Virus record (IMG/VR): IMGVR_UViG_3300012347_000338
Location: 1-64,000 of that record
Reading direction: 5' to 3' (one strand)
Source of the DNA: a virus
Lineage: Duplodnaviria > Heunggongvirae > Uroviricota > Caudoviricetes
DNA length: 64,000 bases
Positions 38,601 through 44,600 of this stretch are shown in pieces. Numbering within the stretch: position 1 is the first letter of the stretch; each line of letters starts with the position of its first letter. Below the pieces are notes generated by a model. The model saw only the letters and a list, made by a program, of their open reading frames with translations, had not been told where the DNA came from and searched no databases. The position numbers and the translations under genes are program-made.

Positions 38601-41600
38601 CGGCAATAGCTTGCTCAGGTTCTGAGGCAGGATCTGGTCGTAGAACTTGGTCATACCCTCGCCGCCGACCTTGAGGTCAAGGCCTGAGTAGACTTTGCCG
38701 CCATCAACACCAGCTTCAGTCACCTCAGCAATTGCCTTCTCAGCAAGCTCCTTGCCGATCATGTCAGAAAGCTTGTTGGCCGGTACTGAGGTGTCATGGC
38801 GTTGCATGCGCATGCCGATTGGCTGAACGCCCAACTGGTAAGTGCCGTCAGGGTTCAGGTTGACGCGGATGGCGTCAACTTGTTTTGCCATGTCATAGCG
38901 ATCAGCAGACTGTTGACCGTTGACGAAGGCCACTTTGTCGTAGCCACCATCAACAGCCATCATCGCGATGCGCTTGAGTGCCAGATTGAGCCAACCTTCA
39001 GTCTTGGTGATGAACGGAGCTTTGGGGAGCCCTTTGAGGCGCTGCTGAGGAATCCACTGCTGGTACTCATTCGTGAGGTCGTCGATCTCTTCATCGGAGT
39101 CGGCGTTGTCCCATCGCTCGCTGAAGTCTTGCAAGTACTCGCGCTGCGACTCGGTCATTGAGTGTTCGTGCTTGCGCAGCAACTCATCGGCACTCATGTT
39201 TGGCATGTCGCCCATACTCTCAGCAAAGCCGCTCTTTAGGCCTTCCTGACCCCAGTCGGACTGCACCTCTTCCACGAACAGCACGCGGTTGCCGTCGGCA
39301 TCTGTGCGGTCATTGACGCGGATGTGGGCGAGAATATTCGCCTCTGACCAGTGGCTTGACATGTAGGCTGGCGAAGAATCCTCATCGGCAATGCGGCGCT
39401 TAACATCAGCCTGCTGCTCAGGAGTGAGATTCGCATACTCCTTGTTGTACAGGACGCGCGCCGCCTGCGCAGGCGAAATGCCTGCAACGGTATTCTTGGT
39501 GGGCAGCGTGATCAACAACTCTCGGTAGTTCTCACCACCAGGTAGCACGTACTTGCCGTACTTGGTGTCGTCACCGTCCTCATCAAGCATGCCTTCAAGC
39601 TCGTCAAGGATTTCCTCGCGGTCCATCGGCTCGCCGTATGCCTCGGCTTCATAGCCACGAATGCGTGCGTATTCCTTGCGCAACTGCTCGTCACTCATCG
39701 CATCAAAGTTCTTGATGTCGCCCTTCATGACGTCTTGCACGTTCACACCACTCTCGGCGAGATAGGCCGCAACGTCGCCCTTGGCGAGCTTGGCCTTGCC
39801 TTGCAGGTCGAGGTAGTCCTTGATGCCGGACCATTCAACTTCGTCTTTCTTGACGCCGAGCTTGGCTGCGTTGGCTTCGATCCACTGCTTCCATGCTGGC
39901 GCAGACATCGTGGCCAGACGCTCAGGAACGCCTTCAATGGCGCGCTGCAGCTGGCTGTAGAACTCAGGACGTCGGAATCGGCTGAACTCAGGCGTGTTCG
40001 GGAACTTGCTCTCGGATTTCTCGTCGCGCTTGCGGCTCTTGCGGATGTCGGGATCTGTCGGATCAAAGCCGCCGTCATTGCCTGTTGCAGATTTGATCTG
40101 AGTAGGCTCAAAGGCGATGAAGTGCACGGTGTCTTCCGACATGCCCTTCATGCCGCCAGTGCGGTCGTAGGTCTGACCGTTGCGCACAACCTTCGGACCG
40201 AACTTCTCGCTGACTGTGGTGTCAATGATGCCGTCGAAGCCGATGTCACTGAGAGCGCGTCGGACAATCTCGTGGCTGGCGCTGTTGCCGTCGTCGTCAA
40301 ACGCGTCAACAAAGTCTTGCTTGATGATGTTGGAGACGTCGCTGACCTTCATGTCACCGTCGATGCCCTGCTCAAAGATCTTGCCGATGGCAGTTTCAAT
40401 GTCCTCGTCGCGGACGCCGTAGTCGGGTGCAATATCACGGATCGCTCCGGTGAACTCCACCAGCTTGCCGGTTGGCTCCTCGTAATCGTCAGTTTCTTCG
40501 TTGTATTCCTCGCTGTAGTCAAGGCGCGTCTCGTTGTTGCCGATGACAACAGGGTTGAGCATGCGCATGAACAGCTTCATTGTGTTCGGAGCACCTTCGG
40601 AATGACGCTTGCGTGCCGCATGATCGGCTGCAACGCCAACGTACTCTTCCTTAAGATCATCCAGCGTGTCTTCAGTAACCTTCTCTTTTGAGCCGGTGTC
40701 CTTAAGGTACTCAGAGATTAGCGTGGAGGCCAGTTCGTCATCAAACTCCATGGAGTCCGCAAGCCTTTCGGTCTCGCGCTCAATGCGCGCGGTCAAGTCT
40801 GGGCCGTTGACGTTGGCGTAGTTGGTGGCCACGTCTTCAGGCGTGTTGCTGGCGTAGAAGCCCGCACCCCAGTCGGACTCGACGTTTGCGCGTGAGCGCT
40901 TGAATTCGGTGATATCGGCATTGGTTGAGCCATGCAGAGCCTCAACAACAACCGGCTCGCCAGGCATGAAGTCATGCGGATCGCCCAGTTCAATCAACGG
41001 GGCGCCGCGAGACCAGCGCTCAAAATTCTCACCGAGGTTACGCTTGCGCGAAAACTTCATCACCTTGATCGGGATGACTTTCTTGCCAGATGCCAGCGCC
41101 TCTTGGTCTTGAATGACCACGGTGTCGCCGTCGCGGGCTGGGTTGTAGTCAACAAAGAAGCCTTTGTGCTTGACTGCGGCCTCTTCCGGCTTGGTCGTGC
41201 GGTCCTTGTTGGTCAGGCCGACAATCATGCCGATGCCGTCTTCGCGCTTGGGGTCAAGGAAGCGAGCGTCGTAGTTGTCGCCGTTCCAGACTTGGAACTT
41301 CTGGCCAGTTTTGCCGTCGATCACGAAGGCAGGCATCTCGTTCTTGTCGGTGAACGCCATGGCCACGTTGGAGCCGCGGTTGAGCTTGGTCACCATTGCG
41401 TCCCAGTTGGACTCTGGGTTGACGATGGTCTTGCCGTCGACGATCTGAGATGCGCCGGTCGAGCTATACGTCAGGTGGTGGTTCTCGGCGATGACCTTGT
41501 TGTTCAGCTTCGTGTAGTCGTAGAACATCACATCGGGGAAGGCCTTGATCAGGGCTTCAAACACCTTTGGCGGGAAGTCTGACGTCACGTTCAGGCGAAC

Positions 41601-44600
41601 GGTGGCCTGATAGTCATCGCGCTTGGCATTGCGTGCGAAGCGGTCGATCTCGGCGAACAGGACGGTGGCGAAGTCTTCTGGCGACTGCACCATTGCCTCG
41701 GTCTTGAGGTACTGCGACATGCGCGGGCCGGACTTGAACTGCCCCTCGCCGCCGTACAGCAGATTCTGACCAGAGGTCTCGCCGAGGCACAGAGACTGGC
41801 AGATCGCGCTTTGTGGGCACGTGGTGAGCTTTTGCTCATCGTTGATCTTCTGAGCCGATGCCAAACCCAGACCCATGGACATCACATCCTTGCCGTCATA
41901 GTCAAGGCCGTAGCCGCCGACGTTGGTCTTCTCGAGCTTGCCGTTGACGCTGAGTAGCGTGCCGACGTTGTGCTTGGCCTTGAGTGCCAGACGCGCCTCT
42001 TTGACGCGTGCGCGGCGACCGGCGAAGTTGAGGCCAGCCATCTCCTCAATGGCGTCTGTGATGCCACTGGTGATGTCGTTGATCGTGGTCTTCTCGGACA
42101 AGCCCTTGTCGCGTGGTGCGTTCTGTGTGAACAGCTTGACCTGCGACATCTTCTTGCGGAACTCGGAGCCTTCCGTGATCTGCACAAAGAAGTCTTTGCG
42201 GCCGTCTTCGTGCTCAGTGTCGATCTGCAACAGGTCAGGATTGATCTGCAGCAGCACGTTCGCGCCGTCGATCTTCTGCTCAATGTTGCCGCGCTTGGCC
42301 ATGACGTTCGCCACGCCAGACTCGTTGGTCAGGTAGACGCGCTCGCCAGTGCCCTTGAGGCTGCGCTCGCGCACAATGCGGCGCGCATCGGCGTTCGTGG
42401 TTGGGTAGTACAGCGTGACCGTGCCGTTGGCGTTGACTGGGATGCCGAGGACCGGGTGATTGCCGTACTTGCCTTCGCGCTTGATCGACTTCTGGATGCT
42501 GACAGGGACGGCCTGTGCACCAGAAGACACGTACGGCAGGATGCCGTTCTCTTTGGCAAACTCATTGGCCTGCTTGATCTGGTCGCGCTTGCGGCTGAAG
42601 CGCATGTCCGCAGTGCCAGTGCCAAACTCACCTGTGTTCTGGGTGGCCGACTTGATCTGTGACGGGTCAAGTGCGACGAACACGTCAGACGCTTCGTCGA
42701 TGTAGTTGGTGTAGGCGCCGGAGCCGGAGTCGACGACGTTGCGGATGATCGCGCCGTCATTGTCATCAGAGCGTGCTTCACGCACGACGCTGTCGGTTGT
42801 CTCGTAGTGCTCATCAGCTGGCTGAACTTCCCCGTCTTCCACGGTCTTCGCGAACTCGTTCGCATCATCAAACATGTCGAAGTACGCCTTGCCATTCTGG
42901 TCGCGCTGCAGCTCGCCATCCTGATTCATTACCTGGTAGCGGCCTGGGCGCTCTCCGTTCCAGTGAGCACCCTCAAAGTCACTCTCAAGAGGGTTTCGGA
43001 TGTTGACGAAGTTGGCGTAGTAGCCTGGCTGATCCCCACCCTCAATGGCTTCTGGCTCCATGTCGGCGTACTGGATCTCACCGCCGCGGCGGCTCACGTA
43101 TGACTTGGCCATCTCCAGATTCGGAGTCGTGAAGATGCCGAGGTCGCCACGCTTGGTGCCACCTGGAGTCTTGAACTCCGAGAAGCCGCCTTTGCTCGAG
43201 CCGTGATAGACAACCATCGGCTCGCCGTTGTTGTCGACCACCTTTGATACTGCGCCCTTGTCGTCGTTCCATACGCCGCCTGGCAGCTTGGCGAACTTCT
43301 CCCAGTCGCCAAACCACTTCTTAAACGCGGGCGTGCGCACTTGCACCCACTGGCGCTCACTGAGATTGGAGTCGGAGCCGTTCGGCGCTTTGAGCCATTC
43401 GGCGGTGTCTTTGTACTTGGCGACCACGGCGTCGTACTGAGCCTGTGGGTCTCCAGCTCGGGCCAATGACTTCTTGACGCCCTGCTCTTCGCGCAGGATC
43501 TGAGCCTGCAAGGCTGGGCGAGTCAGGCTGCTGTCTTTGAGGTACTGTGTGATGCCTTCTTTGTAGGCAGCGCGCACGGCACGCACGTCTTTCACCAAGC
43601 TGGCGGCGTTGAAGCCCGGTTGCTTGATGTCGTTGATCAGCTGCTCAACTAGGTTGTTGAGGTATGCGACCAGCTTGGCGATGATGCCCTTGGCGTCTTT
43701 GCCGTGGTCGGCTTCGATCTGTGCAAATACGTCGCGCCAGAAAGCGCCGTCGGACAGGAAGTCGCCGCCCAAGTCGGACACGATTTCCTCAAGCGCTTGG
43801 CTCTTCTTGTAACCAACCTCGACCATCTGGTCGTAGGCGGCCTGACTGATATTGGCCTTGACCACTTTGGCGATGGACTTCCACGCTTGCGGATTCTCGC
43901 GCTTGATCTGGTGGAACAGTTCGTGACCAAAGATTGCCAGCGGGTTTATGCTTGTTGATTCGTTGATGTAGATCGTGCCAGGATCATCTGGACGCACAAA
44001 CCCATCGCCGCCGTCGCCGCTGAAGATCTGAATCTGCTTGCCTAGCGCGGAGGCCAGGCGCTCCAGCAGGCTTGCATCGCTCTGGGTCAGTTGGCGCTCA
44101 TTGCCGCCGCGTGCAATTGAGGAAGACTCGTTAGGCAGATCGCTCTTGGCGACTTTTTGCAGCTCAACATTCTTGTCGCCGTCCTTGATAGTGAACGACT
44201 CGCCCTTCTTGGCGGCAGGCTTCTTGGCTTTCTTGGCCTTCTTCTGCTGGTCAGCAGCGTACTTCTCGGCCTTGGTATAGCCAGGCGTGCCCTTGACTGC
44301 TATGCCAAACGTGCCGTCCTCATTGGGGTATGGCAGCGCAGACAGATCAGAGCCGTTGCGGCGCTGAGCCACGATGTAGGATTTGGCTTCGGCGTAAGTT
44401 GAAAAACTGGTTGGCGGTGCGTCATTGGCTGCGTCTGGTTTTTCCTCCAGATCCACTGCTTTTTCAGGGGCGGCTGCGGCTTTTTCTGCGACTTTGGCGG
44501 CAGGCTTATCTTGAGTGTCGGCGACAGGCTTCTTGGCTGCGGGCGACTTGACCCATGACTTGAACTCGTCGACGCCCATCTCGGTGATGGCACCCAGGCC

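Follow-up and report, generated by a model that had tools for sequence, protein, structure and literature searches.

The ART-PolyVal family (PF18760) of ADP-ribosyltransferase (ART) domains was defined by Iyer, Burroughs, Anand, de Souza and Aravind (2017; PMC5512222), who described a His in strand 1, a Tyr in strand 2 and an Asp in strand 5, counted between one and twelve copies of the domain in single phage polyvalent proteins, and postulated that the domain modifies host proteins. The same authors explicitly kept the R-S-E clade (T4 Alt/VIP2) apart from the ART-PolyVal clade. Published biochemical work on a member of this family was looked for and not found. A second point of reference is provided by the giant virion proteins of the F116-like podophages, which share a PLxRFG/tail-700 domain. 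The record of one of them, H66 gp60 (3,787 aa, PLxRFG domain-containing protein), states that mass spectrometry confirmed its presence in the virion.

The window analyzed here, a 64,000-nucleotide stretch of viral DNA, derives from a temperate, F116-like phage, and encodes a giant protein of a size comparable to that of H66 gp60 (3,928 aa). Two segments of this protein, designated ART1 and ART2, are members of the ART-PolyVal family and belong to the Tox-ART-HYD2 clade of H-Y-[E/D] ADP-ribosyltransferases. The coordinates of the features are listed in Table 1.

Table 1. Features of the giant open reading frame (ORF) and of its two ART modules
Feature	Position	Strand	Residues (aa)	Description
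Giant ORF	35640..47426	-		3,928 aa, intact; polyvalent virion/ejection-type protein with both ART modules; from ORF list and translation
SLT (lytic transglycosylase), N-terminal	47028..47276	-	51-133	Pfam PF01464, 51.9 bits
InPase domain of polyvalent proteins	44547..44942	-	829-960	Pfam PF18823, 171.9 bits
HELFHQ (HExxH) motif	43908..43925	-	1168-1173	Read from sequence
ART1 module	42540..43409	-	1340-1629	PF18760 core at aa 1398-1601 plus conserved N-terminal extension
ART1 His1408 (VVYHG)	43203..43205	-	1408	Last part of strand 1; counterpart of H21 in diphtheria toxin
ART1 strand 2 and helix	43098..43139	-	1430-1443	G1430-I-F1432-T-T ... A-K-S-Y1443; aligned to diphtheria toxin GFYSTDNKYDAAGY stretch
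ART1 Asp1557 (DND-G-AIIRN)	42756..42758	-	1557	Predicted catalytic acid, directly before strand 5
ART1 QIKSA motif	42645..42659	-	1590-1594	Family signature, last short strand
Junction after ART1	42567..42617	-		GTADMRFSRKRDQIKQA; motif scan; 31-nt repeat in common with post-ART2 junction
Inter-ART spacer	41037..42539	-	1630-2130	GP88 domain inside at aa 1852-2067
Junction GP88 region/ART2	41022..41072	-		PIKVMKFSRKRNLGENF; motif scan
ART2 module	40005..41036	-	2131-2474	PF18760 core split by two helical inserts
ART2 His2165 (EALHGS)	40932..40934	-	2165	End of strand 1, AF2 strand E10-17; invariant in merged alignment A3
ART2 strand 2 and helix	40818..40862	-	2189-2203	G2189-F-Y2191-A-S ... 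T-N-Y2203; AF2 E41-44, H47-53
ART2 Asp2398 (GF-D-G-IIDT)	40233..40235	-	2398	Predicted catalytic acid, before strand 5
Junction after ART2	40008..40058	-		TDPDIRKSRKRDEKSES; motif scan; DNA repeat D2
DNA repeat D2	40019-40049 vs 42578-42608			84% identity
PLxRFG/tail-700 domain, C-terminal	35682..37655	-	3258-3915	NCBIfam NF032893, 616 bits

The giant protein and its ART-PolyVal modules

The giant protein combines SLT, InPase, GP88 and PLxRFG domains in a single ORF that adjoins virion genes, as expected of a polyvalent protein, and its late-gene neighbors encode an internal virion protein, tail fibers and an endolysin. The GP88 domain matched Pfam PF17338 with 76 bits and also phrog_1617. The match to NF032893 spanned profile positions 2-680 of 681, well above the cut-off of 100 bits. 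The HELFHQ motif marks a possible zincin-type metallopeptidase; no model covered this motif in the Pfam scan of the giant protein. A partner gene for NAD or ADP-ribose metabolism (macrodomain, ARH) was absent among the 20 other ORFs scanned in the window, and the genome context therefore gives no hint to the ART target.

Against PF18760, whose Pfam gathering threshold is 31.2 bits, the giant protein as a whole scored 99.2 bits, and the ART1 and ART2 segments alone scored 68.4 and 51.8 bits, the latter divided by its inserts over two stretches. A first-pass annotation, made from the sequence, had proposed that the two segments are paralogous and ART-like, and this was borne out by the profile scores and by 27.8% identity (47/169) over the HMM-aligned core columns; it had also named placement in a non-ART fold as a refuting outcome, and both segments were found to have the ART fold. 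Its ORF, quoted strings and coordinates (aa 1395-1610, nt 42597-43244; aa 2150-2460, nt 40047-40979) were exact, VVYHGSS being located at aa 1405-1411, GDLGIFTTPNLEMAKSYV at aa 1427-1444, YIDEASDVFVALDPSQIKSA at aa 1575-1594, EALHGST at aa 2162-2168, GAGFYASNTPEDVATNYA at aa 2187-2204 and HFIAFEPTQIKSA at aa 2435-2447. The segments that it delimited are real, but the true modules are somewhat larger (approximate limits in Table 1). In ART1 the additional part is a conserved N-terminal extension, WLKAPNG..SNL..QWVQVRTPAFKKWFGDWE.

PF18760 was carried by 36/36 database homologues of ART1 and by 6/6 of ART2. A word-indexed database of 5.8 billion proteins yielded no close relative (full-length identity at most 32% for ART1 and 33-34% for ART2), and an exhaustive search together with IMG/VR recovered relatives of ART2 with up to ~60% identity. 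ART2 matched 1,512 cluster representatives, mostly proteins of 1,000-5,200 aa, and the giant proteins of related viral contigs carried 1-3 ART-PolyVal copies. The family resemblance extends to the surroundings of the domain, a very large phage protein of many domains that contains a lysozyme/transglycosylase, an InPase, a probable metallopeptidase and several ART copies. Since the domain, its occurrence in multiple copies and a proposed Alt-like role were already published in 2017, the giant protein is an ordinary member of a described family and by itself leaves existing knowledge unchanged.

Predicted active-site residues and catalytic acid

Both copies contain the family signature YHG / G-x-aromatic / A..Y / NP / DG / QIKSA..N.G, in which YHG, NP, DG and QIKSA..N.G are invariant columns. 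The columns of H1408 and H2165 were invariant in alignments A1 and A3, respectively, and the AF2 models place both residues where strand 1 ends (for H1408, strand E11-16 of the segment). The strand-2 aromatic (G-x-[YF]) is F1432 in ART1, Phe being the majority residue of the family at this position, and Y2191 in ART2. The later Tyr is kept in both copies; Y1443 was near-invariant across the family in A1, and Y42 and N53-Y54 (segment numbering) were invariant among the ART2-type homologues. Within QIKSA of ART1, which corresponds to AF2 strand E197-199, the I, K, S and A were invariant in A1, as were the downstream N and G.

The first-pass annotation had read an ordered triad in each copy. Its His and aromatic/Tyr positions proved to be conserved, but it had taken as the catalytic acid D1587 and E2440, which lie beside QIKSA in a column that varies across the family (S, R, T, K, N, D or E). 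A single acidic column is invariant in A1, and it holds D1557 (DNDGAII), which is followed by G1558 and directly precedes AF2 strand E164-171 of the segment. Its ART2 counterpart, D2398-G2399 (GFDGII; D249-G250 of the segment), was invariant in A2 and near-invariant in A3, and directly precedes AF2 strand E250-253. On the basis of this invariance, the place before strand 5 and the published family description, D1557 and D2398 are the predicted catalytic acids.

These data bear on the proposal that the modules are true PARP-type H-Y-E enzymes, with the D/E beside QIKSA as the acid and possibly able to make poly(ADP-ribose). In the AF2 models D1587 and E2440 follow strand 6 and do not stand at the start of strand 5, and the only families matched in a Pfam scan of each segment (E up to 10) were ART-PolyVal and, below threshold, DUF3990, with no PARP match. 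The PARP triad was rejected, since Asp occupies the acid position in both copies and in the whole family, as in the published H-Y-D signature, whereas the acid is Glu in PARP/tankyrase and in the diphtheria-type toxins; we consider an H-Y-E enzyme highly improbable. The modules also differ from PARP in having no PARP helical regulatory domain, and from both PARP and the diphtheria-type toxins in their C-terminal QIKSA strand and N-terminal FKxWFGDW extension, which are specific to the ART-PolyVal family. An assignment to the T4 Alt/VIP2 type (R-S-E; Arg, Ser-x-Ser, Glu) was likewise rejected, because strand 1 carries His (YHG) and strand 2 carries G-x-aromatic.

A weak PDB profile search matched only diphtheria-type toxins, PARP12 and PARP13 (E 0.1-0.4). 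In its alignment YHG, GFY and A..Y corresponded to diphtheria toxin H21, Y54 and Y65 (F1432 to Y54 and Y1443 to Y65 in ART1), and HMMER likewise paired the YHG of ART1 with the YHGT of diphtheria toxin. The Phe of ART1 at the place of the toxin's Y54, and its Thr1433 in place of a near-invariant Phe, count against the enzymatic reading.

The retention of the His, the aromatics and the Asp-Gly in both copies and in nearly all homologues would be unexpected for a purely structural domain. It seems unlikely, then, that one or both ARTs are mainly architectural, acting as ART-fold bricks of the capsid-internal pre-ejectosome that pack on DNA or on partner proteins and are catalytically weak or inert. 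Structural and catalytic roles of the modules are mutually compatible.

Divergence of the two copies and the module junctions

Direct BLASTP of ART1 against ART2 aligned short motifs only (E 6e-5 and 1e-3), but their similarity is beyond chance, each segment alone scoring above the PF18760 gathering score. Judged from their sequences, the copies are homologous and anciently diverged. The earlier description of a tandem pair does not hold, because ~500 residues with the GP88 domain separate the modules. This spacer is the best-kept part in related viral contigs (53-58% identity; blastp of the giant ORFs of loci L003-L008). ART2 departs from a typical ART-PolyVal domain in its helical inserts (one of ~85 aa behind the strand-2 helix and one of ~100 aa ahead of strand 5, ~190 residues in all) and belongs to an insert-bearing subgroup with orthologues of its own, whereas ART1 departs in Thr1433, which replaces an otherwise near-invariant Phe following the strand-2 aromatic (A1).

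The DNA of the ART1 and ART2 regions has in common a single 31-nt stretch, which encodes the post-module junction (repeat D2). The sequence (R/K)(F/K)SRKR recurs at module junctions of the giant protein, and these junctions are conserved at the DNA level too.

Proposed delivery with the virion and proposed role

The giant protein of the window and F116-like giant virion proteins such as H66 gp60 share a C-terminal scaffold of ~880 residues (NF032893), the PLxRFG/tail-700 C-terminus being 47% identical to those of F116, H66 and LKA5. The payloads differ: H66 gp60 contains a methyltransferase, LPD23 and LPD3 and lacks an ART, whereas the window protein contains two ARTs, InPase and GP88. By analogy with this ART-less orthologue, whose annotation note is the evidence for presence in the virion, the giant protein is predicted to be packaged.

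We consider it probable that the two divergent ART-PolyVal copies act as parts of a polyvalent virion protein of this phage in the following manner. The giant protein would be made late and packaged into the capsid via its conserved C-terminal scaffold. At infection, the N-terminal lytic transglycosylase would aid in crossing the wall, and the giant protein would be ejected with the DNA. In the host cytoplasm each ART would bind NAD+ via its strand-1 His (H1408, H2165), the strand-2/helix aromatics (F1432/Y1443, Y2191/Y2203) and the Asp that precedes strand 5 (D1557, D2398), and would transfer a single ADP-ribose onto a macromolecule of the host, a protein being the likeliest, and so promote takeover or disarm a defense. 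The targets of ART1 and ART2 would probably differ, because the modules are so divergent. Proteolysis at the recurring junctions may set the ARTs free, and the HExxH domain of the same protein could be the protease responsible. That the modules are catalytic, that they attach one ADP-ribose and not a chain, the class of target and the processing are all inferred.

Two other activities were weighed against protein modification. The modules might be NAD+ glycohydrolases (NADases) that, once ejected, change the NAD+ pool of the host or break down signals derived from NAD+; we regard this as quite unlikely, as protein-modifying PARPs and diphtheria-type toxins gave the best matches by structure and by profile, the authors of the family predict protein modification, and NAD+ depletion at entry would hurt the phage itself. 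ADP-ribosylation of nucleic acids (DNA/RNA ends or bases), as by DarT or Tpt1/KptA, has a similarly low probability in our estimation: DarT and Tpt1 are outside the better matches, and neither segment matched the Pfam DarT or PTS_2-RNA models with E up to 10.

In its proposed role the protein resembles T4 Alt, a virion-carried ART that is delivered with the DNA and modifies proteins of the host as infection begins. T4 Alt, however, is a free-standing head protein of the Arg-Ser-Glu clade with demonstrated activity, whereas ART1 and ART2 are His-Tyr-Asp modules of a 3,928-residue polyvalent protein with predicted activity. The 1,512 relatives of ART2, mostly giant proteins, suggest that virion-delivered ARTs are a widespread predicted phage strategy. 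With two well-delimited, divergent modules, intact predicted active sites and a virion-annotated scaffold counterpart in a Pseudomonas phage, the giant protein would be a sensible choice for testing ART-PolyVal biochemically for the first time.

The best structural match of ART2 was 9k3a_B, a chain of a solved podovirus pre-ejectosome, with an hhalign probability of only 14%. This chain appears to be the ejection protein gp27 of cyanophage A4 (A-4L), which, unlike ART2, has no Pfam ART match and in which its authors describe no ART. A putative, unrecognized ART-like domain in this solved ejection protein would suggest a structural role for ART modules in the virion. More speculatively, and with low confidence, we propose that the modules, especially of the insert-bearing ART2 type, may serve two purposes, first as load-bearing parts of the capsid-internal pre-ejectosome and then, excised at the junctions, as free mono-ADP-ribosyltransferases acting on different host targets; the junction could be both a protease site and a recombination point at which payload modules are swapped between phages.

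Gene order is also similar in H66. In both phages the giant gene closes the late region, and an integrase gene lies near it in each, adjacent in the window and ~5 kb off, beyond the lysis genes, in H66.

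Two ART-PolyVal domains in the giant protein

The minus-strand stretch 35640..47426 is one intact ORF of 3,928 codons, which contains the whole region studied here. A script check of its translation recovered, each in its place, all of the strings that the first-pass annotation had quoted, and the ranges assigned to the two proposed repeats were exact (segment 1, nt 42597-43244 for aa 1395-1610; segment 2, nt 40047-40979 for aa 2150-2460). Pairwise similarity between the segments is weak: BLASTP aligned short motifs only, at E values of 6e-5 (FVALDPSQIKSAT/FIAFEPTQIKSAT) and 1e-3 (the GEP..HGS stretch). 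When each segment was compared alone with the Pfam family ART-PolyVal (PF18760; cut-off, 31.2 bits), segment 1 scored 68.4 bits and covered all 140 model positions, and segment 2 scored 51.8 bits in two stretches. Since each passed the curated threshold of the same family unaided, their resemblance reflects real homology and not chance. PF18760 was likewise present in 36 of 36 database homologues of segment 1 and in all six of segment 2.

In a 26-sequence alignment, V-Y-H-G, the P of the N-P motif, D-G and I-K-S-A..N.G were invariant, and both the Tyr following the strand-2 helix and the Gln of QIKSA were nearly so. The alignment of sequences of the ART2 type (the second module, aa 2131-2474) showed the same conserved set together with conserved positions within the ART2 inserts; in the merged alignment, H, K-S-A, N and G were invariant and N-P, D-G and Q-I almost invariant. 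ART1 (aa 1340-1629) and ART2 are two ART-PolyVal domains with the H, aromatic and D positions conserved in the family. An N-terminal extension outside PF18760, APNG..SNL..QW.qVRT.aFK.WFGDW (aa 1340-1394; 43245-43409, minus strand), precedes the Pfam-defined core of ART1 and is conserved in many homologues. A copy in the giant ORF of a related viral contig (L003, aa 1896-2121) has VYRGQ for VYHG, with Arg replacing the strand-1 His, and may be degenerate or re-purposed.

Features of the giant protein and of its genomic surroundings
Feature	Giant protein (aa)	Window (nt)	Strand	Source or remark
SLT	51-133		-	Pfam, whole giant protein
InPase PF18823	829-960		-	Pfam, whole giant protein
ART-PolyVal PF18760	three stretches		-	Pfam, whole giant protein; 99.2 bits
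GP88 PF17338	1852-2067		-	Pfam, whole giant protein
DUF3990, sub-threshold	within segment 2		-	Pfam, whole giant protein
VVYHGSS	1405-1411		-	script check of translation
GDLGIFTTPNLEMAKSYV	1427-1444		-	script check of translation
YIDEASDVFVALDPSQIKSA	1575-1594		-	script check of translation
EALHGST	2162-2168		-	script check of translation
GAGFYASNTPEDVATNYA	2187-2204		-	script check of translation
HFIAFEPTQIKSA	2435-2447		-	script check of translation
(R/K)(F/K)SRKR(D/N) junctions		42567-42617, 41022-41072, 40008-40058	-	motif scan
Looser junction copies	1319, 3018	43440-43490, 38343-38393	-	motif scan
Tyrosine integrase		33891-35189		near giant-protein gene
Virion structural protein, tail fibre, GH19 endolysin				near giant-protein gene
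Internal virion protein				phrog_511; near giant-protein gene
Metallophosphoesterase, 514 aa		54906-56450	-	phrog_20266, E 7e-114; sub-threshold Pfam Metallophos and HNH_repeat
Three consecutive tail-fibre paralogues		59483-60553, 60771-62063, 62292-63329	-	phrog_4492, E 1e-47 to 1e-54

Catalytic positions and fold

The first-pass annotation had assigned to both repeats a PARP-like H-Y-E triad, of which the first two elements held and the third, the acid, had to be replaced. In the models and the profile alignment, H1408 and H2165 lie at the end of strand 1, strand 2 carries GIF(1432)TT in ART1 and GFY(2191)AS in ART2, and Y1443 and Y2203 come after the helix next to strand 2. The acid had been sought in YIDEASDVFVALDPSQIKSA and HFIAFEPTQIKSA, but the D1587/E2440 column varies among S, R, T, K, N, D and E within the family and, beside QIKSA, sits after strand 6 in the AlphaFold2 models. 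The sole invariant acid is D1557 (DND-G-AIIRN) in ART1 and D2398 (GF-D-G-IIDT) in ART2, directly preceding the strand-5 equivalent (E164-171 of segment 1 and E250-253 of segment 2). These residues fit the published definition of the family, which was grouped with the Tox-ART-HYD2 clade (PMC5512222). The definition and the invariant Asp before strand 5 together indicate an H-Y-D signature, in which D1557 and D2398 would be the three-dimensional equivalents of the catalytic acid. Because the modules gave no PARP profile hit and have Asp instead of Glu, they do not belong to the PARP family, and it is extremely unlikely that they are literal PARP-type H-Y-E enzymes, a reading at odds with the conservation pattern. 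Nor are they members of Alt/VIP2, since that group is R-S-E and the window modules are of the H-Y-D clade. Among PARPs, loss of the catalytic Glu is associated with mono- rather than poly-ADP-ribosylation; by analogy with this rule, both modules are predicted to carry out mono-ADP-ribosyl transfer.

Both modules have an ART fold. AlphaFold2 models built from these alignments reached a pLDDT of 77.9 and a pTM of 0.70 for ART1, and 86.2 and 0.76 for ART2. When PDB sequences were searched with a profile, the four matches were weak (E 0.11-0.44) and all to ARTs, namely Chelona toxin, diphtheria toxin, PARP12 and PARP13; in the alignment to diphtheria toxin, YHG corresponded to Y20-H21-G22, G-F-Y to G52-F53-Y54 and A..Y to Y65. 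Using phmmer, ART1 had no match among PDB sequences even at an E value of 10. An hhalign comparison of the family alignment with the diphtheria toxin A fragment, whose sequence was consistent with the pieces in the PDB profile search, left the catalytic core unaligned; it placed the N-terminal extension (FKxWFGD..SKVVD) on toxin residues 108-136 (E 0.0016, probability 16%), probably by chance.

The top structural match of ART2 was chain 9k3a_B of the cyanophage A4 pre-ejectosome. This chain should be gp27, because gp26 was described as all-alpha in the pre-ejectosome paper. A-4L gp27 (1,717 aa, "tail protein") contains GSLYHGTRV...WGSGTYFSKSSQAASDNA at aa 1422-1460, a stretch that hhalign placed on the strand 1 and strand 2 motifs of the family (E 0.002, probability 14%), and GVDAL and then INPDAV follow downstream in the correct order. 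Pfam gave no ART match in cyanophage A4 gp26, gp27 or gp28, and the pre-ejectosome paper makes no mention of ADP-ribosylation. It seems that an ART-like domain has gone unrecognised in the outer layer of a podovirus pre-ejectosome of known structure.

Divergence and spread of the two copies

Over 169 HMM-aligned core columns, ART1 and ART2 share 47 identical residues (27.8%), a value no higher than the identity of either to ART copies of other phages; with a copy in the related IMG/VR locus L009, in contrast, ART2 shares 60% identity. Additional stretches in ART2, of ~85 residues after the strand-2 helix and ~100 before strand 5, are all helical in the AlphaFold2 model and are common to its own relatives. 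The copies had been described as a tandem pair, whereas they lie ~500 residues apart (aa 1630-2130) with GP88 between them. A recent tandem duplication was rejected in view of the low core identity and a DNA repeat limited to 31 nt at the two post-ART junctions (40019-40049 vs 42578-42608, 84% identity). Basic junctions close the modules: ART1 is followed by DMRFSRKRD, the GP88 region by VMKFSRKRN and ART2 by DIRKSRKRD. The ART modules of relatives end in D[IV]R[FYL]S. The junctions could be protease-processing sites or recombination joints. The spacer is the best-conserved part in related viral contigs (53-58% identity; GP88 spacer of the IMG/VR relatives, ~55%), yet the ART-PolyVal copies of their giant proteins, one to three in number, lie elsewhere, and in L009 copies of the ART1 and ART2 types directly adjoin. 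Such shuffling of the architecture is characteristic of polyvalent proteins.

When ART2 was the query of an exhaustive phmmer search, the number of matching cluster representatives was 1,512 at E<=1e-3 and fell to 801 at <=1e-10 and to 238 at <=1e-30; the best 150 matches were mostly proteins of 1,000-5,200 residues, some with up to 11 matched stretches. By this measure, the ART2-type module is common. No DNA near-identical to the window and no close DNA relative occurred in the phage collection. Among the genome contigs of species representatives, a scan matched just two short fragments, both of them outside the ARTs. In tblastn searches against phages, ART1 had no match and ART2 had two distant matches only, in Myxococcus phage Mx1 and Tunturi_5, both in large proteins annotated as NUDIX hydrolases. 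The Mx1 protein (1,479 aa; L026:4051-8490, plus strand), encoded a few genes from the major capsid gene, has an ART2-type domain with 27.5% identity over 96% of ART2, and looks like another polyvalent protein with an unannotated ART.

Carrier protein, proposed mechanism and genomic setting

The C-terminal 884 residues of the giant protein are 47% identical to giant proteins of F116-like Pseudomonas podophages (Hollowayvirus), and its C-terminus scored 616 bits against NCBIfam NF032893 ("PLxRFG domain / tail-700"). The counterpart in Pseudomonas phage H66, gp60 (3,787 aa; L025:3463-14826, plus strand), is annotated "verified by mass spectrometry as part of the virion"; it has the same scaffold (C-terminal ~880 residues, 47%) but a different payload, with methyltransferase, LPD23 and LPD3 domains and no ART in Pfam. 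The giant virion protein can be described as polyvalent: its N-terminus is wall-degrading, and its conserved scaffold carries a swappable payload; that the modules are mainly structural parts of it is unlikely. A "DarB-like antirestriction" PHROG label was discounted as functional evidence, its match being limited to the C-terminal scaffold (aa 3255-3918). A HELFHQ (HExxH) motif at aa 1168-1173 (43908-43925, minus strand), between InPase and ART1, was matched by no Pfam model. Polyvalent proteins often have a zincin metallopeptidase at this position.

We propose that the giant protein is packaged and then ejected, and that each module would transfer a single ADP-ribose from host NAD+ to a macromolecule of the host, most probably a protein. 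Hydrolysis of NAD+ by the modules as NADases is very unlikely, and modification of nucleic acids by them is improbable to the same degree. The divergent ART1 and ART2 would have different targets, and proteolysis may free them. This mechanism was put forward by Iyer et al. 2017 (PMC5512222) and corresponds in substance to that of the first-pass annotation. The family is already known, being curated in Pfam and described in 2017 in the same paper, which covered its fusion partners, a proposed Alt-like role and its multi-copy occurrence, with as many as 12 copies in one protein of a P. aeruginosa prophage. A literature search found no experimental work on the ART-PolyVal family, and the value of the present modules is modest, chiefly as a candidate for its first biochemical test.

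The window is from a temperate phage or prophage, and its other half encodes a C5 methylase, a DnaC-like loader, RecT, YqaJ, an RNA ligase, RdgC and a dNMP kinase. No NAD/ADP-ribose partner gene was found among 20 other window ORFs scanned. The metallophosphoesterase gene adjoins that of the internal virion protein, and the three tail-fibre paralogues may serve as alternative receptor-binding proteins. Within the structural gene cluster, a 192-aa ORF (50512-51090, minus strand) matched aspartyl/asparaginyl beta-hydroxylase (PF05118, 30.7 bits) and cupin, an unusual enzyme among virion genes.
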